NCBI GenBank assembly: GCA_965196605.1
Contig: CBDAKK010000003.1
Location: 16,821-80,820, forward strand
Source: Spirochaetia bacterium
GTDB lineage: Bacteria; Spirochaetota; Spirochaetia; WTKD01; G963693115
Length of the DNA stretch: 64,000 nucleotides
Reading direction: 5' to 3'
The notes beneath the pieces were generated by a model. That model saw only the letters and a program-made list of their open reading frames with translations, searched no databases and was not told where the DNA came from. The first letter of the stretch is position 1, and each line of letters starts with the position of its first letter. Positions 6,078 to 61,353 of the stretch are shown piece after piece. The position numbers and the translations under genes are program-made.

Positions 6078-6151
6078 TGGAGGTAATCGGATTCGAACCG
6101 ATGACCCCTAGAATGCAAATCTAGTGCTCTAGCCAACTGAGCTATACCCCC
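6078..6151 (-). tRNA. tRNA-Ala(TGC)
   Basis: Reverse complement folds as a cloverleaf: acceptor stem GGGGGTA/TACCTCC with a G3:U70 pair (alanine identity element), D-arm GCTC/GAGC, anticodon stem CTAGA/TCTAG with loop TTTGCAT (anticodon TGC), T-arm ATCGG-TTCGAAT-CCGAT. CCA is not encoded. Confidence 0.85.
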
Positions 6152-6642
6152 AATCCTTTTGAATTTTTATAATACTAAATGCTTTCTCAAATGTCAACAC
6201 AATATGTGATATTGAGGCAAGGTTGCTTTTGTGGAGAGAGTGCCTCACACCCTCAAGCATTGAGTGAACGCCATAGAAAAGAGAAAAAAACCTCCTATGA
6301 AGCTAACGCCATAGAGACAAGACACAAGCGCAACTATGAAGGAAGTACCAAAACACAAGCGAAGGGATGCAAACTATTACATAAGCGCCGCGGTGTGGCG
6401 CAAACATGGAGATTGCGTCAAAGACTTCCCCGTAATAAGACGATGCTTACAATTTATGTGTGCAGTCGAAAAGGTGCGTTAACGTAGCAAAAAGCAAACC
6501 GAGTATCAAGTACAGTTACTACTAAACAATCGCTAGATAAGCGACTTGACTTTTGCTCTCCTTTCAACGTTTTTCTGTTGCGCGCAGCTACTTACATCCA
6601 TTTTTTTGTAAAAAAAACAAAAATGACTATACATAATATACC

Positions 6643-7848
6643 ATGATTTATCAAAAGAAAATTTTTAGGAATATATCCCAAATATCATTCATAAGCGCAT
6701 TTACGCTTATATCGTTTATTATTACTAGTTGTGATTTTGATAAGCCTATACCCTCAAATAATGGCAGTGATAAAAAAGCCGTTTATGATAATAATAAACT
6801 CTACGCTGCCATAGGATTTAATCCTAACACCTCCCACCTTACAGGAAAAAATGTTCAAATTGCAATATTGGAAGGCGACGCTCGCTATATTATTGATGAT
6901 GACGTAACTTATATGCAATTCAAAAATAGGTCATTAGGTGTTTTTGAAGGCAAGCTTTACCTGCTCAAAGAAGCGCGAGAGAGATTTTTCCATGCAACAG
7001 CAGTCGCCTCAGTTTTGGCAAGTAAAAACATAGGAATAGCTCGTGGAATAACCTTCTATCCAATGAGTACGGCAGCGCACACTATTGCTGATGTTTACTC
7101 CACAATAAAAGGCTATAATATCCTTGCTATTAATAACAGTTGGGGCAGCCATGCAAAATGGTCACATGCTATTACATTCATAAAAAATGACACGCAATAT
7201 TGGGATAAAGAATGGATAGATTCTGTAGGCAGAAAACTTAACTGGCCTCGTAGCGAAAAAAAGAGAAAATTAGATGCATTTGCCAACGATATGGAAAACA
7301 ACAAGGACAGAGCACCCCTGTGGGTTTGGGCAGCTGGAAATGTAACTTATGGTCGTCCTTGGGGAAGGCTAGATGATGTAAGATATTCTGCTGGATTACC
7401 TTACTATATTAAAAGTCTAGAAAAATATTGGATTGCCGTGGCGGGAGTCAGATTTAATGGCTCGTATTCTTCGCTATTTCCTTGTTCAAGAATGAAAACA
7501 TGGTGTTTGGCTGCTCCAGCAATAAACGTAAATATACAATCAGGAGGAAAAAAGGATGTTAAAACCGGTACGTCGTTTGCTGCTCCTCAAGTAACAGCAG
7601 CATTGGCATTGTTGCAAGAAAAATGTCCTAGTTCCTCACAATTTGAAATACGAGACATACTTTTACGAACTGCCCGTCATGAGACTGCAAATGGTTACCG
7701 TCTGAAGGCTAAAGACGGCAGCGTTGTAAAAACAACGCAAATAGCGGTTACAACTGCAAACGGCACACAAGAAGAAAGAGCGTTATCTTACGAATATGGG
7801 CATGGCATTCTGCGCTTAGATTTGGCACTGAAGCAACCTTGTCGCTAA
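6643..7848 (+). CDS. S8 family (subtilisin-like) serine peptidase, probable lipoprotein
   Basis: Signal peptide with lipobox ITSC. S8 active-site Ser motif GTSFAAPQVTAA, His region FHATAVASV. AT-rich relative to the flanking genes. Confidence 0.65.
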   Translation: MIYQKKIFRNISQISFISAFTLISFIITSCDFDKPIPSNNGSDKKAVYDNNKLYAAIGFNPNTSHLTGKNVQIAILEGDARYIIDDDVTYMQFKNRSLGVFEGKLYLLKEARERFFHATAVASVLASKNIGIARGITFYPMSTAAHTIADVYSTIKGYNILAINNSWGSHAKWSHAITFIKNDTQYWDKEWIDSVGRKLNWPRSEKKRKLDAFANDMENNKDRAPLWVWAAGNVTYGRPWGRLDDVRYSAGLPYYIKSLEKYWIAVAGVRFNGSYSSLFPCSRMKTWCLAAPAINVNIQSGGKKDVKTGTSFAAPQVTAALALLQEKCPSSSQFEIRDILLRTARHETANGYRLKAKDGSVVKTTQIAVTTANGTQEERALSYEYGHGILRLDLALKQPCR

Positions 7849-14091: not shown

Positions 14092-14526
14092 ATGAAATGT
14101 ATGAAAAATATACTTACTTGTTTTTCTTTAATTTTAGTGCTTTTCGTAAGCGCATGTGATCCATCATTAGGAGAAAAAAAACAGAATAACAACACGGATA
14201 AGACGGATAAGTCAGCCGAAGTATCGAATGCTGAAGCTATTAGCAATGGAGGAAAGCCTCATGCCCTTGTTACTCCTGCCCGCCCTAATATTCAAATTAA
14301 TGCTCCCGCTCCTGGTGTTGCTCCCGTGAGTATTACAAATACTGACGAAAACCTTGAATACAGAATACATCCTCCCGTAGCGGGCATAACACTGATAGGG
14401 GACGTCATCGATGCAGACCGTTCTGCTTCAAACGTTATTTTGCAAGTACGTACAAAAGAAACAGCTACACATCAAGCATCAACTTGGGTAAGTAGCGCTG
14501 CCTTTGACATCACTATCTCTCCCTAA
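14092..14526 (+). CDS. small lipoprotein, hypothetical
   Basis: AAGGAG ribosome-binding site, signal peptide with lipobox VSAC. Confidence 0.45.
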   Translation: MKCMKNILTCFSLILVLFVSACDPSLGEKKQNNNTDKTDKSAEVSNAEAISNGGKPHALVTPARPNIQINAPAPGVAPVSITNTDENLEYRIHPPVAGITLIGDVIDADRSASNVILQVRTKETATHQASTWVSSAAFDITISP

Positions 14527-14579: not shown

Positions 14580-16175
14580 TCAAGCCTTTTGAATGTTACA
14601 AAAAAGTTCAGACTGCGCCTGTGCCTGTGCTACAAACATTTCTTCGCCAGAAATTGTGGCGCAGCCAGCATTTTGAGCCTCTTGTAAAAATTTAGTGCAT
14701 GGAGGCGTGTACACAATGTCGTAGGCAATTTCCTTTCCGCTAAATTCATAATTGGGGAGCGGCGTTTGCTGTGGCGCATTCATGCCCACGCTTGTAGTTT
14801 GCACAATAAGCTCACTGTGCATTTTGATGGCGGCGTAGTCTGTAATGGGCGCGTGTGCCACGGCAGCACCATAGCGCTTATGTAAAAACAGCGCCAGTTC
14901 TTCTGCGTTTTTCAAGGTTCTATTAACAAGCAGCACACGCGCGCCTTCACCCAAGAGCGCATGAGAAACCGCGCGCGCCGTGCCGCCGCTGCCTACAACC
15001 GTGCACGCCATGCCTTGTAGCTCTTTGTTGGCACTTGCAAGCCGCGTGCGCAAGGGCTGCAAAAAACCCACAATGTCGGTGTTGTACCCGCGCGTTTTTT
15101 GTACGCCACTTATGCTTTCTACCACAAGCGTGTTGCAAGACCCGCAGCGCAGCACGGCTTCATCCACTTCATCCAACAAAGGTATAATCGCGCTTTTATG
15201 TGGTATGGTGACGGAAAGCCCACGCAGGTTCATGTGCTCCATGAGGGGCGACAGTGCGGCGACATCATCTACGCTTAGGTGGACGTACACGGCATCAAGC
15301 TCTTGTTTTTTAAAAACCGCATTGTGAAACTCCGGCGACTTTGAGTGCATGACGGGGTTACCCACAACGGCAAAGACGCGCGTCTTGTCATGTAACTTTT
15401 TGTATGAATACGTTTCACACAGTGCCTTAGGGTCAAAATGCCCTGCGGCGGCTTGGCGCGTCCCCTGCGCTGAGGCGTAGGTCCACAGCGACCCGCTGCG
15501 TGCGGTGAGTATGCGCGCGGGTCTGCCAAAGTCACCCATGGGTGCAAGCACGTAGCGACCCCGCATGCTCTTAAGCTGCTGTGCACCTACAAACAATGCT
15601 TCGAGCTGCCACGCACTCATGCACATAAGGGCTTGTTTTATAAGCGCCTGCGGGTACAATTCCGCAAGTCCTTTCATTTCTTGGAGCCACGGCATGCGCG
15701 CATAATCAATGCGCCCCTTTGCACCTTCGCCGTTTTCATAAAAGGCGCGCTTGTCATCAAACCAGTGTCTCGAAACTATAAGCCTACTTGTTGCCGCATT
15801 TTGCGTTTTCACATACATGTGCTTGCAAAAACTCTCATGCTCTGCTTCTACGTCTATGTAATCAAAAGCACCTGAGGCCATAACCTGTTCCAACACTGCG
15901 CGCCGTTCGCTTTCATGCGCAGCTTCGCACAGTCCGCCATCCGTCTTGGTGCGCAGCGTAAAAATAAACTGTATCGCGCGCTGTTTTTTTTCACCCCGCG
16001 CCCACGCAATGCAAGCTTGAGCAAATTCACGCGCCTTTGCGGCTCCGCTTTCAAGAGCGCTCGCACAGTCAAGCAAGTCAGCTCGCAACTCCACAAGGTC
16101 TATGTACCCTGCATAATGCTCTATGTCGCTACTCATGTGTGCAAATGTGGGCGCGGTAAGTGAAAGGCAAATCAT
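14580..16175 (-). CDS. bifunctional 3-dehydroquinate dehydratase (type I) / shikimate dehydrogenase
   Basis: N-terminal AroD-like half and C-terminal AroE-like half with NADP-binding VVGSGGTARAV. Its first roughly 53 codons lie inside the 292-bp duplicated segment. Confidence 0.75.
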   Translation of the reverse strand: MICLSLTAPTFAHMSSDIEHYAGYIDLVELRADLLDCASALESGAAKAREFAQACIAWARGEKKQRAIQFIFTLRTKTDGGLCEAAHESERRAVLEQVMASGAFDYIDVEAEHESFCKHMYVKTQNAATSRLIVSRHWFDDKRAFYENGEGAKGRIDYARMPWLQEMKGLAELYPQALIKQALMCMSAWQLEALFVGAQQLKSMRGRYVLAPMGDFGRPARILTARSGSLWTYASAQGTRQAAAGHFDPKALCETYSYKKLHDKTRVFAVVGNPVMHSKSPEFHNAVFKKQELDAVYVHLSVDDVAALSPLMEHMNLRGLSVTIPHKSAIIPLLDEVDEAVLRCGSCNTLVVESISGVQKTRGYNTDIVGFLQPLRTRLASANKELQGMACTVVGSGGTARAVSHALLGEGARVLLVNRTLKNAEELALFLHKRYGAAVAHAPITDYAAIKMHSELIVQTTSVGMNAPQQTPLPNYEFSGKEIAYDIVYTPPCTKFLQEAQNAGCATISGEEMFVAQAQAQSELFCNIQKA

Positions 16176-16309
16176 AATTTCATTGTACGCAAAAACTCGT
16201 CAAAGGCGCAGCGCGTGTGTGTGCACAAAACCCTATACAATAAAACCATGCAAGAGAGAATTTTAACTCAGAATATAGCCAATCATATAGACTCACGCAT
16301 TGTACTTTG
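16018..16309. repeat. left copy of a 292-bp direct repeat (about 99% identical to 17619..17910)
   Basis: Direct comparison of the two segments shows 2 mismatches. Contains the aroDE 5' end plus a truncated 5' fragment of the tRNA-ligase gene (MQERILTQNIANHIDSRIVL...). Confidence 0.9.
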
Positions 16310-16518
16310 GAGGGTTGCTGTTCTGTTTGTATTGGTAAATAGTTGCACTCTAATTACTAACGCAATACATTAGTAATGTGTAAGAAATACCACAAAGGGT
16401 ATACAAATGCAAACATGATATCGGTGCATAAAGCAAAAAGGAGCAACAATAGCTATTGTTTTCATCGTATTATTTACTAGATATAATTATATAGCCACAA
16501 AACAATCAAAACATAAAT

Positions 16519-17589
16519 ATGATTAAAAGTATTCAGCCTCTAAAAATTATAGTCTTTTTTTTGTTTATAATATTGTTTCTTCTTGCTTGTCCTACTTTCT
16601 TGGAATTAGGTGTTGAACATGTTAAAGAAGCAAGCGATGGTCAACTCTCTGAGTCTTTAGTTGCAGGAGCTGTTGGTGAGAAAGGATATAAAGATGGATA
16701 TCTTCTTGAGGCGCGCTTTGATACTCCACATGCGTTTTCTGCAGACTCAAAAGGTAATGTGTATGTTGCCGATACAGGAAACAATGTTATACGAAAAATA
16801 AGCTCTACAGGTATAGTAACAACATGGGCAGGCAACAAAGATACAAGAGGTTTTCGAGATGGACATCGTCTTACTAAAGCATTGTTTGATAAACCGACAA
16901 GTATAGTAATAAATAAAAATATAATTTATATTGCGGATAGTAATAATCATCGGATACGAAAAATAGTGGGTGATATTGTGAGTACAGTAGCCGGGGGCGA
17001 TGCGGGATATCAAGATAATCTAAATGGAGTAGCAGGTGTAAAATTTGAGAATCCTGGCAAACTCCAATTAATAAAAATCAATGAATCTGATAGATATTCA
17101 TCTCCTGAAAATGGAGATTGGGCTGCAGCAGCATTTAACGAATTCAAGACAGTTAATTACTATAACCATGGATATCATGAAAAATACGGAAATGATCATA
17201 TAGATATTTCCTTGCTAGATGGTCCGAATGCAAATAGATGGAGAGTAATAGCTATAAAGGATGATACTGTAAAAGAAGTTAGCACAATAGATAGTGATAT
17301 ATATGATACTGTATCAGAAGTTAGCAAAAATAAAGATATTGTCTGTATGAGAGATATTAAAGGGGAGTATAACGATACAAGATGTTTAAGTAGAGCTGTT
17401 CTTCTCATGCCAAGAAAAGATAAAGATCCTGTCATAACGATAGTTGGTGAGAAAAATGTTTTTGATTCTTTCCATATTATTCTTGTGCCAACAAAACACG
17501 TTATTATTAGTTATGATAAATTAAAACATGGTATATTGAAGTTAAGGCACGGTGATAATTTTAATCCTGAATCTTTTCCTCGGCCATGA
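16519..17589 (+). CDS. NHL-repeat lipoprotein with a novel His-rich C-terminal domain (paralogue 1)
   Basis: Signal peptide MIKSIQPLKIIVFFLFIILFLLAC. NHL-type repeats (NVIRKISSTG..., NNHRIRKIVGD...). C-terminal segment HIDISLLDGPNANRWR...ILVPTKHV is shared with the ORF at 35691..36626. Strongly AT-rich relative to the flanks. Confidence 0.7.
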   Translation: MIKSIQPLKIIVFFLFIILFLLACPTFLELGVEHVKEASDGQLSESLVAGAVGEKGYKDGYLLEARFDTPHAFSADSKGNVYVADTGNNVIRKISSTGIVTTWAGNKDTRGFRDGHRLTKALFDKPTSIVINKNIIYIADSNNHRIRKIVGDIVSTVAGGDAGYQDNLNGVAGVKFENPGKLQLIKINESDRYSSPENGDWAAAAFNEFKTVNYYNHGYHEKYGNDHIDISLLDGPNANRWRVIAIKDDTVKEVSTIDSDIYDTVSEVSKNKDIVCMRDIKGEYNDTRCLSRAVLLMPRKDKDPVITIVGEKNVFDSFHIILVPTKHVIISYDKLKHGILKLRHGDNFNPESFPRP

Positions 17590-17618
17590 ATAGCGGCACT
17601 AAGAGAAAAATTATGGTA

Positions 17619-17776
17619 TGAGCAAATTCACGCGCCTTTGCGGCTCCGCTTTCAAGAGCGCTCGCACAGTCAAGCAAGTCAGCCCGCAACTCCACAAGGT
17701 CTATGTACCCTGCATAATGCTCTATGTCGCTACTCATGTGTGCAAATGTGGGCGCGGTAAGTGAAAGGCAAATCAT
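17619..17776 (-). pseudogene. duplicated 5' fragment of the aroDE gene
   Basis: The first 53 residues are identical to the N-terminus of the 14580..16175 product. It then reads into the inserted sequence. Confidence 0.7.
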
Positions 17777-17910
17777 AATTTCATTGTACGCAAAAACTCG
17801 TCAAAGGCGCAGCGCGTGTGTGTGCACAAAACCCTATACAATAAAACCATGCAAGAGAGAATTTTAACTCAGAATATAGCCAATCATATAGACTCACGTA
17901 TTGTACTTTG
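17619..17910. repeat. right copy of the 292-bp direct repeat
   Basis: Identical to 16018..16309 except for 2 mismatches. Carries a duplicated aroDE 5' fragment (track ORF 17561..17776) and the true start of the tRNA-ligase gene. Confidence 0.9.
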
Positions 17911-19138
17911 CGGATGGGTGCACCGCATACGAGAGTTAGGGGGCATTGCCTTTGTGTTAATACGCGACAGAAGTGGCATTGCACAAGTGGTGTGCGAAAC
18001 GACTTCAGAAGCCTACAAAACGCTGAGCCTTGAATGCGTGGTTTCACTTGCTGGTACGGTGTGCAAAAACGACAAAGCACCCTATGGCGCAGAAATGCAT
18101 GAACCCGAAATTACCGTGCTCTCCAAGCCGCAAGGCGACCTTCCGCTTGCTGTACACGCACCCATAGACAAAGTGAGCATAGACGTACTCTTGAATCACC
18201 GCATTGCCTCTCTGCGTATACCAAAAGTACGCGCAATTTTTGAAGTGCAATCCGCAATACTCCAATGCTTTGCCGCGTACATGCGCGAGAAGGACTTTAC
18301 AGAAACAAAAACCAGCAAGCTCATTGGCAGTGGCACCGAAGGCGGGACGGGGCTTTTTGAAGTTCAGTATTTTGACGGCTCGGTTTTTTTGGCGCAGTCT
18401 CCGCAGTTTTACAAGCAAGCAGGCATTGCAAGCGGACTAGAGCGCGTCTTTGAAATTGGGCACGTCTACCGCGCTGAAAAACATGAGACCAACAGGCACA
18501 TCAACGAATACGTTTCACTTGATGTAGAAATGGCCTTTGTCTATGAGGTAGAGGAACTTATAGAGCTGCAGCGTGGGTTTTTACAGCGTTTAAGCGAATT
18601 GCTGCTCTCAAACTACAGCGCGCAGCTGAGCATGTGGGACGCAGATGTGCCACAGCCCGAAGCGCTTACAAAAATTCCATTGCTCAGCTATGATGAAGGA
18701 AAACAAATAGCCGCTCAAAACAGCGGAGAGCGCATTTTGGACATAGACCCCAAGGCAGAGCGCGTGCTTTGCGAATGGGCGGAAAAACAATACGGCGTGA
18801 ACGCGGCATTTGTTGCGGGGTTTCCGCGCCGCAAGCGCCCCTTTTACACCATGCCCGACGGCCAAAAAACCAAGGGCTTTGACCTTTTGTTTGGAGGCGT
18901 GGAAATTTCCACGGGGGGCTTGCGCATTCACGACTACACCGAGCTGTGCGAAAGCGCCAAAAAATTTGGGCTTGCCACTCAAGGTTTAGAAGACTACTTG
19001 TCTATTTTTGCCTATGGCTGCCCGCCACACGGAGGCTGGGCTATAGGCTTAGAACGCCTCACGCAAAAAATACTCGGCCTTTCAAGCGTCAAACTCGCCG
19101 CCATGTTTCCACGCGACAGAAACAGAGTTCGCCCATAA
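17849..19138 (+). CDS. class IIb aminoacyl-tRNA ligase, archaeal/eukaryotic-type aspartate--tRNA ligase (could be Asn-specific)
   Basis: About 430 aa. N-terminal OB fold ([26 protein letters not shown]), class II motifs [27 protein letters not shown]. Start chosen at MQERIL (17849) rather than the track start 17816. Confidence 0.65.
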   Translation: [429 protein letters not shown]

Positions 19139-19990
19139 GTGCTTTGTGGGGGGAGTGTCCCCCCACGCCCCCCCCGTGGGTAAGACGCGATACTGCGCTT
19201 ACGCGCGGGTATTTGTGCCATGATTCACACGGTGTTATATGAATTCTTTCTGTTGCCAAGCAGCAGTTTTAAATACGCTATCTATTCGGATGGCCGTTCT
19301 TTTTCTTTTCTTTTTTACCATCCATAGCGCTCGCTTGTGCCATCCATGGCACAAGCGAGCGCTATGCGCGAGTAGGCTGCACGCCGTGTGTGGTATGGCT
19401 CACGCGGTATTGTATGAACTTTTTCTGCGGTCAAGCAGCCGCACCTGCTATGACATACGCTCGGATGACTGTACTTTCTTTCTTTTCTTTTTGTGCGACG
19501 CAAAAAGAAAAGAAAGAAGAATACCAAAGAAAGAAAAGAAAAAGCCGCTGTGGGGGCAAGCCCCCACACCCCCGCGTATTAAGCAAACGCTTCTTGTATC
19601 ATCCCTGTCAGCCTATGCGTGCCGTCCATGGCACGGCTGTGATGACGCTCACGAGCGTAGCGAGGGGATGCAAACTATTGCATAAGTGCTTTGTGGGGGG
19701 AATGTCCCCCCACGCCCCCCGTGAGTAAGACGCGGTACTGCGCTTACGCGCGGGTATTTGTGCCATGATTCACACGGTGTTATATGAATTCTTTCTGTTG
19801 CCAAGCAGCAGTTTTAAATACGCTATCCATTCGGATGGCCGTACTTTCTTTCTTTTCTTTAACATCCCTGTCAGCCTTAATGCCCCGTCCATGGGGCGGC
19901 TGTGAGGACGCAAAATGTGTAATCCTACGCAAAAGCATGTGGTAGTTTACACGCGGTTAAGCAAGCATGAAGCTTGTAACAAATAAATCT
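19139..19990. repeat. composite GC-rich intergenic repeat element, family copy 1; contains two copies of a roughly 160-bp module plus several palindromes
   Basis: Module gtgctttgtggggggagtgtccccccacgcc...ttcggatggccgt occurs at 19139-19300 and 19684-19845. Hairpin GTGGGGGGA-GTG-TCCCCCCAC at 19146-19166. Palindromes centred on CCATGG. (CTTT)n/(AAAG)n palindrome. Related sequences are at 25080-25500 and 32090-33260. Confidence 0.8.
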
Positions 19991-32089: not shown

Positions 32090-33260
32090 CATGTGTGCAG
32101 CTTTGCGACACTTGCTATGAGCTCCATTTCTGTGTCGCACCATCCATGGCGCCCCTTCAGCCCCCTCCATGGGGCGGTCGTCCGCTCCGTTCTATTTAAT
32201 GTTTCTAGCCATACCCTCGATGGCGCACAATGCGTGCCATCCGAATGAATAACGTATTTAAAATAGCTGCTTGGCAACGGAAAGAATTCATACAACACTG
32301 CGTTAGCAAAATTGCGATAGCTTCCGCGCGCGTAGCGCTCAACACGCATGAGTAATCTCTATACCTCGCACATTAGTCCCTATGGCGTAGCCCCACAAGA
32401 TGTTTTTTTCTTTGATGCGAATACTCCATGTCTGCTACGCTGCGCTCCGCAATCTGAATGTCAGCATCCCCTCGCTACGCTCGTGAGCGTCATCACAGCC
32501 GTGCCATGGACGACATAAGAAGCGTTTGCTTAATACGCGGGGGCGTGGGGGCGTGCCCCCACAGCGAGTTTTCTTTTTTTCTTTGGTACTTTCTTTTTTT
32601 CTTTTGATGCAAGTTCCATGTTTGCACCGCACAGCGGTGCTTATGCAGTAGTTTGCATCCCCTCGCTTCACTCGTGAGCGTCGCACAAAAAGAAAAAAAG
32701 AAAGTACGGCCATTCGAGTATATTGCTTATTTGGTGTTGCGTCTTGGCGACAAGAGGCGTTCACACACACCGCGTGAGCTATAACACAGAAAGACGCGCA
32801 TAGCGCAGAATCCGCGTCTTACCCAAAGGGGGTGTGGGGGTAGCTCCCCCACAAAGCACTTATGCAATAGTTTGCATCCCCTCGCTTCGCTCGTGAACGT
32901 CATCACAGCCGTGCGATGGACGACACAAGAAGCGTTTACTTAATACTTGGGGGCGTAGGGGCGTGCCCCCACAGCGAGTTTTCTTTTTTTCTTTGGTACT
33001 TTCTTTTCTTCTTTTTCGTCGCAAAAAAAGAAAAAAAGAAAGTACAGCCGTCCGAAATGTTTGCATAGTGCGCTCACGTCGTGGCAACAGAAAGAATTCA
33101 TACAATACCGCGTGAGCTATAACACAGAAAGACGCGCATAGCGCAGCACCGCGTCTTACCCAAAGGGGGTGTGGGGGTAGCTCCCCCACAAAGCACTTAT
33201 GCACATCCGGCGTCTTACCCAACAGGGGGGTGGGGATACCCGCCCCCACAAAGACAACGT
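32090..33260. repeat. composite GC-rich intergenic repeat element, family copy 3 (inverted orientation, two tandem sub-copies)
   Basis: Reverse complements of the copy-1 modules: ...cgtgagcgtcatcacagccgtgccatggacg..., hairpins gtgggggcgtgcccccac, gtgggggtagctcccccac, gtggggatacccgcccccac, and the tttcttttttt/aaagaaaaaaag palindrome. Confidence 0.8.
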
Positions 33261-34317: not shown

Positions 34318-35301
34318 TCAGAATACCCCGTGGTGTACGAAAGCCCCCCAACCGTTTGGCATTTGCGCTACCATCATGTAGCCGGTAATACCCTTAGTAG
34401 CTTGCCCAACATGGGTTACGTAGTCAAAACGCCGCAGGGCAAGCGTCATATACTCACCATTGCTGCCTGTGCCACCATCAGTAATAAGCACAATTGGTTT
34501 TGTATATTGTCGCGGCCCCTGTGGCTCAGCGTGCCATGCATACGGTGCTGCAAAGTCGTTTCTACCCGGGCCATTTTTCATATACATGTCCATAAAGTGT
34601 TTTCTTTCTTTCACAAAACGACCAACTATATGCAGCATATTTCCGGGGTATCCTCCGGGATTTTGCCGAATATCGAGAATAAGTCCATCCGTATATGCAA
34701 GCCTTGACACAATGGCATCTATGTCGTGCGCCCATTTTTGAACGGTTGTCAACTTCAAATCTTTATTGTCTGCAAAAGTTCTGATATACACATACCCAAG
34801 GTTTTTGCCCTGCGCCTTGTCATCAACTATAGCACCGTACATCATCACTTTGTTGGTGCCGTAGTCTCGTAGTGTTGACTGTAAGTAATATTGATATACC
34901 CTATCGGGCGCATTTTTCGTAAACCCCGATGTTCTTCTATATGAACGATTTGCAATATAAGGATGAAATAACTTGTGTCCATATTGTATATTTGTGCCAT
35001 GTCCCAATGAAAAAGATATGTGGGCATCTTTCAAACGCGCTAATACGTCTTTTAAAACATCCATCAATTCATGGCTTGACATATCACTGCTAATACGAGA
35101 ACGCGCAGAGCGCATTACTTTATTCCAGCTAAAGTCGTTTTTCGCTTCCTTCCACGCCAACGATGCGTATGAATCTGAAATTCTGTCGCGCACGTAATCA
35201 AAATTAACAAAGCCATCCATGCGCTTTTCATCAATTCCCATAAAAAGTTCGCATGTACTAAGCGTTGCTATACATACACATAAAATTATAAATCGTGTCA
35301 T
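34318..35301 (-). CDS. S41-family (C-terminal processing) peptidase-like lipoprotein
   Basis: Lipobox LSTC. Motifs DIRQNPGG (cf. DLRNNGGG) and ITDGGTGSNGE (cf. GSASASE). Confidence 0.55.
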   Translation of the reverse strand: MTRFIILCVCIATLSTCELFMGIDEKRMDGFVNFDYVRDRISDSYASLAWKEAKNDFSWNKVMRSARSRISSDMSSHELMDVLKDVLARLKDAHISFSLGHGTNIQYGHKLFHPYIANRSYRRTSGFTKNAPDRVYQYYLQSTLRDYGTNKVMMYGAIVDDKAQGKNLGYVYIRTFADNKDLKLTTVQKWAHDIDAIVSRLAYTDGLILDIRQNPGGYPGNMLHIVGRFVKERKHFMDMYMKNGPGRNDFAAPYAWHAEPQGPRQYTKPIVLITDGGTGSNGEYMTLALRRFDYVTHVGQATKGITGYMMVAQMPNGWGAFVHHGVF

Positions 35302-35690
35302 ATGCTTCCATATAAAGGAATAGCAACTTATGAATTTGAAACAAGGAAATTGATAAAAATGTTAATGAAAAGTAACAATGCCACGCGGTTAGGAGCATTG
35401 TTTTTATAATTTCATACCTATTGTTTGAGAGATTTGTGAAAGTAACTGGATTGTAATATGCAACACGACACTATAATTTAAGAAGCACATTATTGCGAAT
35501 TGCTATCTTTTTTGTGTTGTAGAAATATGATGTGCAAAAAATTGACACCTCCCTTGTACGCATGAAAGTTTTGCAAGAAGCCGAGCATGCAAACGACCGT
35601 ACCATTACTAACAAAGAAGTGTTTGTAGAATCAAACGCAATCTGAAATTATTTCGTCAAACTGCGCCTTATTAAAAATTTATTTGTTCTT

Positions 35691-36626
35691 TTAACTACCA
35701 AATTTCACCATGACATGTTTCGTAGGAATAAGAATATAAAATACCGCACCTTTTTTTCCCTTGGCTATCATTACGTACGAATTTTTTCCTACTAATATAG
35801 GCAGAGACATATTCTTATCTATGGTTATCACTTCCTTGACAATACCATCTTTTAAGGTTATCTCTCTCCACCTTTGTCCATTCGGTCCGTCTCGCAACGA
35901 AATATCCATGTGGTCTCCATGTTTTTTATGAGCTATATCGTGACTATTATTCCCTTCATAGGATTCCAGATGCGCTTTTCCTAAGTGTTTATGCCCTTTA
36001 TGATGAGCTGCCTTAGTGAGAAACATGTCTTTATCTTTAAAATACTTTATTTGGAGCTTGAAGGGACTTTGAAATTTTACGCCACTTTTTCCATGTTGGT
36101 TATCCTCATACCCGAGATCACCACCTACCAAGGTGCTAACAACATCACCAACTATTTTTCGTATACGATGATTGCCACTATCAGAAATGTACATTCTATC
36201 TGCGGTATCTATTACTATGCTGGTAGGCTTATTAAAAAGCGCTTCATTAAGCCTATGTCCGTTTTGAAAACCACCGGCACCTTTTTTTCCCGCAAAGGTT
36301 GTTACTTCACCTTCAGGACTTATTTTTCGTATTACGTTGTTTCCCGTATCAGCGACATACAAAGTCCCTTTTGAGTCCCTTGAAAACATATGGGGACTGT
36401 CAAACCTCGCATCAACACCAACTCCATCTTGATAACCCTTTTCATTAACTGCGCCCGCGAATACATATTTAGCAAGCTCTTCATCGCTCATTCCTTCTGC
36501 TTTTTTAAGTGCTGCCTTTTTCGTAAGCGCAAGACCTTCATCAACATTTGCATCATCACACGCAAACAACAAAAGTGCAAACAACACCACAAACATACAT
36601 TTATACAACTGAATATTTTTAATCAC
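35691..36626 (-). CDS. NHL-repeat lipoprotein with a novel His-rich C-terminal domain (paralogue 2)
   Basis: Start reassigned to the GTG at 36626, 7 nt after the AAGGGAGA ribosome-binding site. This gives MIKNIQLYKCMFVVLFALLLFAC, parallel to MIKSIQPLKIIVFFLFIILFLLAC of paralogue 1. NHL repeats. Shared C-terminal segment HMDISLRDGPNGQRWR...ILIPTKHV. AT-rich. Confidence 0.65.
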   Translation of the reverse strand: MIKNIQLYKCMFVVLFALLLFACDDANVDEGLALTKKAALKKAEGMSDEELAKYVFAGAVNEKGYQDGVGVDARFDSPHMFSRDSKGTLYVADTGNNVIRKISPEGEVTTFAGKKGAGGFQNGHRLNEALFNKPTSIVIDTADRMYISDSGNHRIRKIVGDVVSTLVGGDLGYEDNQHGKSGVKFQSPFKLQIKYFKDKDMFLTKAAHHKGHKHLGKAHLESYEGNNSHDIAHKKHGDHMDISLRDGPNGQRWREITLKDGIVKEVITIDKNMSLPILVGKNSYVMIAKGKKGAVFYILIPTKHVMVKFGS

Positions 36627-36802
36627 AAGATATTCTCCCTTATTAAAATAGCTAGATATTACTAATATTATGTATAGGATATAATTGTATTTTTTCAAAA
36701 AAGAATTTGGGAAAATAAAAATTATAAGTAAAAATAAAATTAAATAAAAATTTATAAACGATACAATTTAAGAATAGTTTATAATTTTTTGATAGAGGAC
36801 AC

Positions 36803-37513: not shown

Positions 37514-39129
37514 CATGCATGGCGGTGATAAACATGCAGAGCCCTTTATCGCAAGCAAGACACCGCGAACAAAACGCAGACTTACCTTATAAACAAAGAC
37601 CACGCTTACAACACTTAAAAGTAAAAAAGCGCACAATCAATGACAACTAACAGCCCCCATATTAATGGGTATTGAACTAAAAAAAGAGGAGTGAGCAAAA
37701 TGTGACACTGCTCACTCCCCTCCTTACCTTTAAAAAGCACTACAAATGTCTAAGGCATGCTTGGGCATACTTTGCTCGTACAAGCTTGAAACCCTATTCT
37801 TGTGAATGTAGACCATTGTGATGCTTCGTTATAATTCGTCTCTTTAACACGCTGTTGCACACCAACTATTGAAGAGTTATGAACACCTATTCCCGTAATC
37901 TTTATTTTTCCCTCACTAGTAATGCTAGGTGTACCCGGATACTGCTTCCCATTATCCTTCAGTCTGATTACCCGGTATTCATACATTGTAGGATTATACT
38001 CGAATATTGCTTCTGATTCTGCAGTATTCGTAGTATAACCTACACGAATTATTGGCATCTGAATTATTGCTGACCACAAGAATGGAGCACTTGGAGCATC
38101 TGGCTTATATTTTTGAATAGTAAATTTAAAACTTACTGCTTTTTTATTATATTTTTGATGATATAGGAAACCACTAACAATGATTTCGAGAACAGCACCA
38201 TCTCTATTACATATCCCAACAAACTCAGCCCAAGTCCCAAGCCGCCCATCTGCAGAATACGGGTTAAGCAATATGTAAGGTCGTGGAGAAACAGAAATGT
38301 TGGGGTTTAGTAATAGCTTTGTACCTGCAGGCGCGTCTTTAATAATATCTGATTCTATGTCGCTAACCTTAAATCCCCTGGACGTGTCATTATAAAAACC
38401 CTTACACGCATTCTTTCCAAATGTGTAATCGACTGCCCTCGCATTAGTACTCATAACTCCGCGCTCAACAGTATATTCAACCCTAACTTTTTTATTCTCA
38501 TAATTAGGGGCAGCAAGTTCAAATTCTATAGTACTCTTACCTAAATCTCCAGTTTCCTGCAGAGAGAAAACACCATTGTTTTCAATTTTTCTTACAGACT
38601 TCCCACTAATAGAAATGCCTACAATGTCTGTTATTGGTGATACTGGACGGTTGAGAAGTATATTAGCATCCATTTCTTGTTGACCAGGTTCACCGTCAAT
38701 AAAATCCTTGAGTATTTCTTTTTCATCATACTTTTTCAAATTTTCTGTATGTTTGACTACTTTGTTTTTTCCTGTCACATTAGCTGAAAATTTCGCTTTA
38801 GTAAACTCAACCTTCACAGCATCTGACCACACCGATTTACTGTGAGTATTTGTACTCTTAGACTGCCGCTTTATAATTCCCACATATGGCGCCGTTGCGC
38901 TTATTACTCCATGATTAATAGCAATCTTGTTACTATCCGGTTTTATTTCATACTTATACTTATTTGCATCATAACCGCTTATGTTTATAGCAGTCCCCCA
39001 CGCTACCTTAGACTGCGATAATGTCACTGGACCCGGCTTCTTCTGTGTTGCGGGACTTATTATAAAATCTATCGCTACGGGTTTACTGTTATAATTCGGA
39101 TTCTGTAATGTTACCTCCACCGTACTTGT

Positions 39130-59604: not shown

Positions 59605-60250
59605 ATGATAAATAAAAATTTTCATTCTATATTAGAACTATTAGAAGCATTCCCCAATGAAGAAATATGCATACAACATTTAGAAGCAATTAGATGGAAT
59701 GAAAAAGTCATAAGTCCTTTTGATAATAACTCACCAGTATATAAATGTAAAAACAATAGATATAGATGTAGATGTAAAAATACAGGCAAATACTTCAATG
59801 TCAAAACAGGGACGATGTTTGACAATACAAAAATAAGTCTTCAAAAATGGTTTGTGGCTATATGGCTTGTTACTGCTCATAAAAAAGGGATATCATCACG
59901 ACAACTAGCAAAAGATATACATATAACGCAGAAAACAGCGTGGTTTGTTTTGCAAAGAGTACGAGTATGTTTTGCAATAGAAAATGATCACAAACTAGAA
60001 AATGAAGTTGAAGTAGATGAAACTTATATCGGTGGGAAGAATAAAAACAAGCACACACCAATACTATAGAAGGTTTTTGGTCCTTATTAAAGCGCGGAAT
60101 TGTAGGAATATATCACCATTGGAGTAACCAGCATTTACAAAAATATATTGATGAGTTTGTATTTCGATACAATACAAGAAATTCTCATGAAGAAACACGA
60201 TTTAATGCAGTATTATCTAACCTAGAAAACAGAACAACATACAAGGTGTT
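59605..60250 (+). mobile_element. IS1595-family (ISXO2-like) transposase gene with an internal deletion of the DDE core; a degenerate insertion sequence
   Basis: The N-terminal zinc-ribbon/HTH part (...CKNNRYRCRCKNTGKYFNVKTGTMF...DETYIGGKNK) stops at 60069. The C-terminal tail (EGFWSLLKRGIVGIYHHWSNQHLQKYIDEFVFRYNTR...) continues in another frame to about 60250. The product is roughly 210 aa where this family normally gives about 300. Confidence 0.6.
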
Positions 60251-60255
60251 AGTAC

Positions 60256-61353
60256 ATGGGTAATATGGTACAGCAACAAGATTTTATATTTTATACGACT
60301 AATAGCGGCGATATAAACATACGGGCTATTGTAGAAGATGATACTATTTGGCTCACACAAAAGCAGTTAGCGATGTTGTTTCGAGTGGAAGCAAATACAA
60401 TTACTTATCATATACAAGAAATATTTAACAGTAATGAATTGGAGCAAAGTTCAACTACTCGAAAAATTCGAGTAGTTCAGACAGAGGGTAGTAGAAATAT
60501 ACATCGAGAAATACTGCATTATAATCTCGACATGATTATAGCAGTTGGGTATCGTGTTAATTCATATAGAGCAACACAATTTAGAATATGGGCAACAAAG
60601 ATGCTCAAGGAATATCTTATAAAAGGATTTGTACTTGATGATGATAGATTGAAACAAGGCGAGACTTTATTTGGTAAAGATTATTTTGATGAGCTACTAG
60701 AGCGTATTCAAGAAATACGAGCATCAGAGCGGAGATTTTACCAAAAAATCACAGATATATACAAAGAATGTAGTGCTGATTATGATAAAAATTCACCTAT
60801 TACAAAAGATTTTTATGCACATGCACAAAATAAGCTAGAGTATGCAATCATCAATATGACCTCTGCTGAAATAATAAAAGAAAGAGCAAACCACAATTTA
60901 CCAAACATGGGACTTACTACATGGAAAAAACAAAAGGAAAAAGGGAAAATATACACTTATGATGTTACTGTCGCAAAAAATTATCTCAATGAAGATGAAA
61001 TAAGTAATCTTAATAGGTTGGTTTCTCAATTTTTAGATTTTGCAGAAGGATTTGCAAAGCGTGGTAAAGTCATGTACATGCAAGATTGGGCAGATAAACT
61101 CAATAATTTTTTGAAATTGAATGAATATGCAGTATTACAAAATTATGGATCTGTCTCAAAATCAATAGCTGATAATTTTGCAAAAAAAGAATATAAAAAA
61201 TATAAACCAGCACAAGATAAATTACATAAGTCTGATTTTGACAAAGTTGTAGAAGAAATAAATCAAACTAAGAAGTTACCGAAGCACAGAAAAGAAGTAC
61301 TGAGTTCTTTTAATCAAAATCTCAAAAAAGCTATAAATTGGAAACAAGAGTAA
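60256..61353 (+). CDS. RhuM-family virulence/defence-island protein
   Basis: The N-terminus IFYTTNSGDINIRAIVEDDTIWLTQKQLAMLFRVEANTITYHIQEIF and the GYRVNS...ATQFRIWAT motifs are typical of RhuM. Confidence 0.75.
   Translation: MGNMVQQQDFIFYTTNSGDINIRAIVEDDTIWLTQKQLAMLFRVEANTITYHIQEIFNSNELEQSSTTRKIRVVQTEGSRNIHREILHYNLDMIIAVGYRVNSYRATQFRIWATKMLKEYLIKGFVLDDDRLKQGETLFGKDYFDELLERIQEIRASERRFYQKITDIYKECSADYDKNSPITKDFYAHAQNKLEYAIINMTSAEIIKERANHNLPNMGLTTWKKQKEKGKIYTYDVTVAKNYLNEDEISNLNRLVSQFLDFAEGFAKRGKVMYMQDWADKLNNFLKLNEYAVLQNYGSVSKSIADNFAKKEYKKYKPAQDKLHKSDFDKVVEEINQTKKLPKHRKEVLSSFNQNLKKAINWKQE

Follow-up and report, generated by a model that had tools for sequence, protein, structure and literature searches.

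Two rare NHL-repeat lipoproteins of an uncultured spirochaete: a probable four-bladed propeller with an invariant His/Asp motif, and the gain of one gene as an AT-rich insert

The NHL propellers (Pfam PF01436) include the PknD sensor, the designed Pizza proteins, SOQ1, NHLRC2, TRIM71 and YvrE-like lipoproteins. Their domains have six blades in ~250–300 residues, and in those closed by a ‘Velcro’ strand an N-terminal ‘xxAG’ strand precedes blade 1. A propeller of another kind, AztD, is a zinc chaperone of the periplasm or cell surface (PDB 6CK1/6CMK) with a zinc site of the type His/His/Asp/His, made up of a His-x2-His-x-Asp sequence on a beta-hairpin and a further His, and with His-rich disordered segments at its termini or as inserts (PMC6689063). 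The subject of this report is a pair of genes, here called p1 and p2, that encode NHL-repeat lipoproteins in a 64,000-nucleotide stretch of DNA from a Spirochaetia bacterium (the window; positions 16,821 to 80,820 of contig CBDAKK010000003.1, assembly GCA_965196605.1). The genes and their putative export signals are:

35691–36626, minus strand: p2 gene, 311 aa with a GTG start, stop included (from the list of open reading frames, ORFs); identical to public protein P0001
16519–17589, plus strand: p1 gene, 356 aa, paralog of p2 (ORF list); public protein P0003
36634–36641, minus strand: Shine-Dalgarno-like sequence AAGGGAGA, 7 nt ahead of the p2 GTG (direct sequence reading)
36558–36626, minus strand: p2 signal peptide, lipobox LLFAC with Cys23 (PROSITE-type lipobox regular expression)
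16519–16590, plus strand: p1 signal peptide, lipobox FLLAC with Cys24 (same expression)

Each protein has two repeats that match the NHL family strongly and follow the same GYxDG...FxxP...YVADxxNHxIRKI grammar, and each has the ‘xxAG’ strand before blade 1. However, p1 and p2 have room for only four blades (~230–255 residues) and, unlike in other NHL proteins, sequence comparison does not reveal their putative blades 3 and 4, of which blade 3 carries a unique His/Asp motif and a variable loop. The C-terminal half is probably the diverged blades 3 and 4 of a single four-bladed NHL-type propeller, not a separate novel domain, as judged from predicted models. We put at about 0.6 the probability of the overall explanation, in which p1 and p2 are lipid-anchored four-bladed NHL propellers with a His/Asp site and p1 arrived by insertion of a cassette. 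Proteins of this type are best read as a very rare variant of the NHL propeller, not as a new class of domain.

An earlier note on this DNA, made from the sequence alone, had proposed that the two genes are related, and they are indeed paralogs, with 43% identity over 346 columns in BLASTP (E 5e-84). The same note had moved the start of p2 to the GTG at 36626–36624, behind a ribosome-binding site; AAGGGAGA lies where this requires and P0001 uses the identical 311-aa reading. The alternative start, TTG 36698, adds 24 residues before a signal peptide that otherwise matches the N-terminus of p1. Both N-termini have a basic region, a hydrophobic core and a lipobox of the form [LVI..][..][AGS]C within the first 35 residues, so that the signal peptide which the note had seen as common to p1 and p2 is backed by a lipobox in both. 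A PROSITE PS51257-type pattern fits all four members of the family described below (LLFAC, FLLAC, SLFAC and GLFAC), in which the lipobox Cys is residue 23, 24, 27 or 16. From these sequences we infer that p1 and p2 are membrane-anchored, and with it their cellular location: signal peptidase II would cleave at the lipobox Cys, and a tether of ~30 residues, predicted to be helical, would join the lipid to the propeller. Nothing supports the further suggestion of an anchoring role for the C-terminal part, the predicted anchor being the N-terminal lipid.

The family is minute. When a profile built from the C-terminal parts of p1 and p2 was run with HMMER exhaustively against 1.84 billion representative proteins, four proteins matched: p1 and p2 themselves, P0121 (290 aa, run SRR30948333, L001) and P0122 (296 aa, from a TARA metagenome scaffold). 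A 90%-cluster database returned the same two outside members and nothing further; a scan of 185,579 species genomes for the C-terminal motif gave no relative, and a scan of JGI metagenome contigs no family member. Nor does tblastn find a third copy of the gene in the 64-kb window. ‘Family expansion’, as the earlier note had it, thus overstates what amounts to two copies here and four clusters world-wide. All members have a common architecture of lipobox, tether, two NHL repeats, variable loop, His/Asp motif and then two conserved blocks, the first of which, after the motif, reads D[IL][ST]..DG...WR.....[KR][DN][GD].[VI]K.[VI].T[VI], while the tail follows the pattern hh[IM]L.P[TN][KS][HN]hhhph. 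The other 118 homologs of p2 among the matches listed are NHL proteins of the ordinary multi-blade kind, none of which covers more than 68% of p2, and many of the bacterial homologs among those listed are likewise secreted or lipoproteins. A near-identical variant of P0121, P0249, occurs in the sister run SRR30948332 (L006). The two (290 and 302 aa) differ by a 9-residue insertion of the TTTPPDNSQ type in the tether and by small insertions and deletions in blades 3–4; the tether and loops therefore vary even within one population.

The N-terminal halves contain canonical NHL blades. Against the Pfam NHL model, with its cut-off of 20 bits, p1 scores 47.2 bits and p2 39.3 bits, with two repeats in each protein, in line with the earlier description. 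Blades 1 and 2 of p2 align to a six-bladed NHL profile in hhalign with a probability of 99.9%, and a hidden Markov model (HMM) built from 697 blades of homologs finds the pair with independent E-values (i-E) of 5e-26 and 1e-17 in p2 and of 9.5e-25 and 5.7e-16 in p1. Profile matches of the family in the PDB (Pizza7H, 2e-33; SOQ1, 2e-31) are limited to query positions ~42–188. By hhalign the NHL homology does not stop at blade 2 but takes in a GYxDN...GVKFxxP linker and then the opening strand of a third blade, and in p2 this segment matches the blade profile with E 0.0024. With the predicted continuation, in which pLDDT is the predicted local distance difference test score of the models discussed below, the propeller is made up as follows:

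36120–36467, minus strand: p2 N-terminal strand (probably ring-closing) and NHL blades 1–2, residues 54–169 (Pfam NHL, hhalign, blade HMM, pLDDT 88–95)
16654–16998, plus strand: p1 N-terminal strand and NHL blades 1–2, residues 46–160 (Pfam NHL, blade HMM)
36039–36119, minus strand: start of p2 blade 3, linker GYEDN...GVKFQSP and first strand FKLQIKYF, residues 170–196 (hhalign; strand 189–196 in the model)
35817–35912, minus strand: predicted p2 blade 3 strands b–d (HMDISLRDGPNGQRWREITLKDGIVKEVITID), residues 239–270 (strands 239–246, 252–259 and 262–269; pLDDT 73–83)
35694–35783, minus strand: predicted p2 blade 4, residues 282–311, ending YILIPTKHVMVKF (strands 284–290, 293–300 and 305–310; hhalign E 0.03)
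17362–17463, plus strand: p1-specific 34-residue insertion in the predicted blade 4 (alignment gaps)
17515–17586, plus strand: 24-residue C-terminal tail of p1, after the blade 4 insertion (alignment gaps)

The C-terminal parts of p1 and p2 share 41 invariant columns, which bears out the conserved module that the earlier note described, and its observation that the module resembles nothing recognised also holds. The C-terminal part matched no described family: profiles of one, two and four sequences found nothing in Pfam, NCBIfam or the PDB sequences. The best C-terminal hit, to ribosomal protein S2, was a chance match (E 0.22). Aligned to the profile of six-bladed homologs with hhalign, the C-terminal part gives a probability of 0.05%. 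It is this lack of any match, together with the distinctive invariant His/Asp motif, that speaks for taking the last 115–170 residues as an independent, undescribed metal-binding or anchoring domain, fused to a truncated two-blade NHL fragment. We regard such a fusion as unlikely. A two-blade NHL fragment alone cannot fold, the homology reaches the first ‘blade 3’ strand, ahead of the His loop, and the lipid anchor is N-terminal. There is also a weak signal of internal repetition: blades 1–2 align to blades 3–4 in a self-comparison with hhalign at E 0.006 over 90 columns, as against 4e-11 for blade 1 with blade 2. Compared singly with the 697 NHL blades, blades 3 and 4 align mostly in the expected register at low stringency (E 0.03–0.25), as do strands b–d of p2 blade 3 (E 0.25), and the tail of P0122 (AIYMLDPNSHAIYRW), the equivalent of p2 blade 4, matches the NHL blade HMM with i-E 0.0013, the sole such match for blades 3–4.

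Structure prediction also speaks for diverged blades. AlphaFold models were made from the four-sequence alignment for p2 at full length and for the 233-aa core of P0121, and both thread the C-terminal strands into the same series of sheets. The p2 model (pLDDT 75, predicted template modelling score, pTM, 0.76) has a strand at 55–58 followed by groups of 4+4+4+3 strands, and the P0121 core (pLDDT 83, pTM 0.83) has 1+4+4+4+3, with its N-terminal strand at pLDDT ~89. In the models blade 4 has three strands of its own; if the N-terminal one is counted with them, the 16 strands make up four blades of four strands each. In p2 the strand to be added would be YVFAG, which as the fourth would probably close the ring in Velcro fashion. 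Strands b–d of blade 3 are supplied by DISLRDGPNGQRWREITLKDGIVKEVITI and blade 4 by SYVMIAKG...VFYILIPTKHVMVKF. The best 50 Foldseek matches listed against the PDB are almost all NHL propellers (SOQ1, NHLRC2, Thin, TRIM71, Pizza6 and PAL), with E down to 9e-10, TM-scores (TMq) of up to 0.62 for the 233-residue core and root-mean-square deviations (rmsd) of 8–10 Å to the six-bladed structures. Since the N-terminus and blades 1–2 account for 116 of the 233 residues, a TMq of 0.62 exceeds what these alone could give, and some of the C-terminal half must be matched to blades as well. The large rmsd fits a predicted ring whose curvature is unlike that of six blades. Thus the module, an orphan by sequence as the earlier note had it, does not seem to be the separate novel domain that it was taken for: two models give a continuation of the propeller, with its strands as blades 3–4, the matches that Foldseek lists for the whole chain are almost all NHL propellers, and the self-comparison adds a weak signal. 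As the predicted models have it, 16 strands and so short a chain leave p1 and p2 below the six blades of an NHL domain; blades 1–2 would have stayed canonical whilst blades 3–4 drifted beyond recognition by sequence.

In predicted blade number and in size the two proteins resemble the hemopexin-like propellers (PF00045, ~200–230 residues), from which they differ in that their blades derive from NHL; PF00045 gives no match at E <=1 for the full length or at E <=10 for the C-terminal part. Four-bladed propellers are often closed by a disulfide (PMC8458387), whereas in p1 and p2 the Velcro strand would close the ring, and the family has no conserved Cys pair.

The His/Asp motif lies within the predicted blade 3, preceded by the variable loop:

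35946–36038, minus strand: p2 variable His/Lys-rich loop in predicted blade 3, strands a–b, residues 197–227, with HHKGHKH (low pLDDT; length variation)
35904–35945, minus strand: p2 conserved motif SHDIAHKKHGDHMD, residues 228–241, a candidate metal or ligand site (four-member alignment)
17164–17205, plus strand: p1 conserved motif NHGYHEKYGNDHID, residues 216–229 (alignments)

The motif has the pattern [SN]H[DG]x(1,2)H[KE]K[YH]G(N)DHxD, or in short SHDxxHKKYGDHxD, and seven of its residues (H229, H233, K235, G237, D238, H239 and D241 in p2 numbering) are invariant across the four members. It is the densest invariant block outside the structural NHL residues and is absent from the other 118 of the 120 NHL homologs among the matches listed. 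The P0121 model shows it as a short helix running into strand b of blade 3 (pLDDT 76–86), an arrangement that would place three His and two Asp, all of them invariant, on the same face of the propeller as the working site. The loop ahead of it differs in length in every member, being longest in P0122 and nearly absent from P0121; in p2 and P0122 many of its residues are His or Lys, and the p2 model falls below pLDDT 50 at residues 203–229. The ‘His-rich’ character that the earlier note reported is modest, His making up only 3.1–4.5% of residues, and of the His stretches that it quoted only the final SHDxxHKKYGDHxD is conserved between members.

A divalent-metal site at this motif is possible, with the odds somewhat against it; the case is one of analogy and draws on the invariant motif, not on the variable His stretches. 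If the site is of the zinc type, the flexible His-rich loop could act as a low-affinity collector, in the manner of AztD or of the ZnuA loop. The likeness to AztD lies in an H-x3-4-H-x5-6-H-x-D sequence at the start of a strand together with a variable His-rich loop and would be one of function only: the AztD propeller, which is not an NHL one, has eight blades as against four in the models of p2 and P0121, and the family profiles do not match the AztD chains in the PDB sequence set. The gene for AztD moreover belongs to an aztABCD operon; next to p1 and p2 there is no metal transporter gene. Flexible His-rich loops have been discussed as zinc collectors (PMC6689063), and the HHKGHKH of p2, in a disordered loop of a lipoprotein, includes the HxxHxH of the Pht proteins and is in this respect like the ZnuA loop; however, HxxHxH is confined to p2, the other members lacking it, and the folds are unrelated. 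A surface for binding a ligand or a protein is the fallback should the site not be one for metal. The invariant motif offers a concrete, mutable candidate metal site in an uncultured, probably host- or marine-associated lineage of spirochaetes.

Several points weigh against the four-bladed, site-bearing propeller favoured here. Profile comparisons of the C-terminal half with NHL blades are not significant (probability 0.05–12%), and the assignment of the C-terminal blades rests mainly on AlphaFold models made from four sequences, with ring closure and blade number read from the strand pattern, pTM and TM-scores rather than from coordinates. In the Pizza designs, NHL blades form rings of six and of no other number (PMC8458387). 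As to function, the His-rich loop is the part that P0121 almost lacks, and no metal-transport gene adjoins p1, p2, P0121 or P0122. For p1, no recognisable ribosome-binding site was found.

The insistence of Pizza blades on six-fold rings (PMC8458387), and the self-assembly of Pizza2 and Pizza3 fragments, lend some weight to the idea that the four-blade chain stays open and oligomerises, with three chains making two six-bladed rings or a dimer making one of eight. Blades 1–2 are strongly Pizza- and PknD-like, and an rmsd of 8–10 Å could be taken as a sign of unusual model geometry. Such assembly seems improbable to us, since blades 3–4 differ strongly from blades 1–2 and are not interchangeable with them, the monomer models are confident overall (pTM 0.83) with the N-terminal strand well placed, and a lipid tether on every chain would make interdigitation awkward. 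That the genes are decaying remnants of a six-bladed NHL lipoprotein, with a C-terminal part frame-shifted or eroded and without function, is suggested by the two recognisable blades, the AT-rich composition and the extra insertions and unclear ribosome-binding site of p1, and can be dismissed as very improbable indeed given four to five independent sequences, from different organisms, whose ORFs are intact and similarly built, C-terminal strands modelled at pLDDT 73–90, invariant C-terminal residues and a ratio of non-synonymous to synonymous change (dN/dS) of ~0.3. By the method of Nei and Gojobori, and with synonymous sites near saturation, p1 and p2 give dN 0.24, dS 1.04 and a ratio of ~0.23 for the NHL part, and dN 0.40, dS 1.36 and ~0.29 for the C-terminal part; both halves are thus under purifying selection, and with the conservation this rules out pseudogenes.

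If the four-bladed propeller is correct, a closed ring can be built from fewer than six NHL blades, against what the Pizza design work suggested, and the family would be a natural example of a propeller that lost blades whilst two of those left drifted past recognition. The family is tiny, and no major concept is changed.

The locus of p1 is that of an acquired gene:

16310–17618, no strand: AT-rich 1309-bp insert that holds only p1, GC 0.334 (composition)
16018–16309, no strand: left 292-nt direct repeat, comprising 5' aroDE, intergenic region and 5' aspS; completes aroDE (repeat comparison)
17619–17910, no strand: right 292-nt direct repeat; completes aspS and leaves a 5' aroDE stub antisense into the 3' end of p1 (repeat comparison)
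16459–16487, plus strand: promoter-like TTTTCA-17-TATAAT, ~30 nt upstream of p1 (consensus match only)

Each 292-nt repeat spans the first 158 nt of aroDE, the short stretch between the divergent genes and the beginning of aspS; the two copies differ at two positions. Because of the duplication both aroDE and aspS are intact. Within the insert p1 is the only ORF of any length; two stub ORFs face into it, one of 52 aa from aspS (16215–16373) and one of 71 aa from aroDE (17776–17561, antisense into the 3' end of p1). The composition of p1 is unlike that of its surroundings, with GC 0.339 and a GC content at third codon positions (GC3) of 0.193, 2.7 standard deviations (sd) below the mean of the 48 ORFs of the window (0.454, sd 0.095). 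In L004, a 1.85-Mb contig whose aspartyl-tRNA synthetase (AspRS) is 78% identical, aroDE and aspS are adjacent, with no NHL gene between them. The acquisition of p1 as an insert is well supported by these three observations, the 292-nt repeats, the GC3 of 0.19 and the empty site in L004. It would have come as a 1.3-kb AT-rich cassette whose insertion duplicated 292 nt of the divergent aroDE/aspS promoter region. This is the topology of an insertion-duplication, in which a circle with 292 nt of homology integrates in the Campbell manner, and recombination between the repeats could delete the cassette precisely. The insert is without terminal inverted repeats, an attC-like end or a recombinase gene. 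Origins as a transposon, an integron cassette or an integrase island were rejected, hallmarks of these being absent and the flanking duplication being 292 nt and not short. Promoter-like sites in the p1 region are no more numerous than in shuffled sequence, and intrinsic terminators were found near neither p1 nor p2. The p1 locus is a clean case of natural gene gain, in which two essential neighbours were kept by duplication of their shared promoter region.

A bolder combination, doubtful as a whole and put forward only tentatively, would make these the first natural four-bladed NHL propellers, Velcro-closed and derived from a six-bladed ancestor, with a His3Asp2 metal site on an inserted loop, and so a new kind of metal-handling lipoprotein of the spirochaetal surface or periplasm; to this it would add the gain of p1 as a cassette-like, reversible event through the insertion-duplication of a 292-nt promoter region.

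For p2 the case for acquisition is weaker. Its GC is 0.385 and its GC3 0.314 (1.5 sd below the window mean), and no flanking repeats were found around it. The earlier note had placed both genes in AT-rich pockets within DNA of about 50% GC. The pockets are real (GC 0.334 at 16310–17618 and 0.344 at 35302–36802), but the window averages 45% and only the immediate neighbours reach 50–52%. Its proposal of horizontal acquisition is likewise sustained for p1, with less support for p2. AT-richness is not a trait of the family, since the TARA member (P0122) has a GC3 of 0.545, close to the 0.56–0.64 of its neighbours, and is compositionally native. On the question of whether p1 and p2 arose by duplication or by separate acquisition, a four-taxon phylogeny divides its informative sites 5, 4 and 1 among the three topologies.

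Gene order around p2 points to a rearrangement. Here p2 lies head-to-head with a histidine phosphatase gene; in the relative from the SRR3094833x runs the family gene lies tail-to-tail with the ortholog of that phosphatase, followed by aroDE. The order in L004 is S41 protease, histidine phosphatase, aroDE, aspS, which the relatives (L004 and L006) keep, whereas in the window the aroDE–aspS pair lies ~19 kb from the phosphatase and is inverted. A single inversion of about 14580–36700 would restore the order of the relatives, with p2 at one breakpoint and a small lipoprotein ORF (14092–14526) at the other. Downstream of p2 is a gene for a short S41 peptidase (34318–35301, minus strand; 327 aa, with a Cys-containing signal peptide). 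Its similarity to chlamydial CPAF is weak (61 bits, well short of the cut-off), and the 480-aa PDZ-S41 protease that occupies the syntenic site in L004 is not its ortholog.

As to the host, the best named relatives of the AspRS of the window (17816–19138) are from Spirochaetota, for example Spirochaeta thermophila, at ~57% identity, and other relatives reach 78–80%; the source is thus a divergent, uncultured spirochaete. It is absent from the 185,579 species genomes scanned, in which the AspRS brought up no close relative.

Further features of the window touch p1 and p2 less directly. There are non-coding repeats downstream of aspS (19147–19911), with 172-nt copies (89%) and repeats of 52 and 30 nt, and at 32464–33246, with 142-nt copies (94%) at 32464 and 32874 and G-rich 37-nt repeats at 33151 and 33210. 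On the minus strand between 37750 and 45276, four consecutive ORFs (37750–40557, 40645–42954, 42911–44638 and 44538–45236) look as though frame shifts or stops had interrupted a single giant gene for a surface protein. This region contains about six tandem copies of a unit of ~813 nt (271 aa) at 85–98% identity and has a very strong negative GC skew; in Pfam it drew two hits, both sub-threshold, and no match that is credible. Another pocket that is strongly AT-rich (59605–61353, plus strand; GC3 0.21–0.22) holds a 154-aa ORF without a Pfam match and a gene for a RhuM-family virulence protein (E 3e-106), and is probably another acquired island. The only Rfam match in the window is a tRNA (6078–6151, minus strand), beside which lies an AT-rich S8 subtilase gene (6643–7848, plus strand; GC3 0.30); this tRNA/subtilase site (6078–7848) may be a site of integration.

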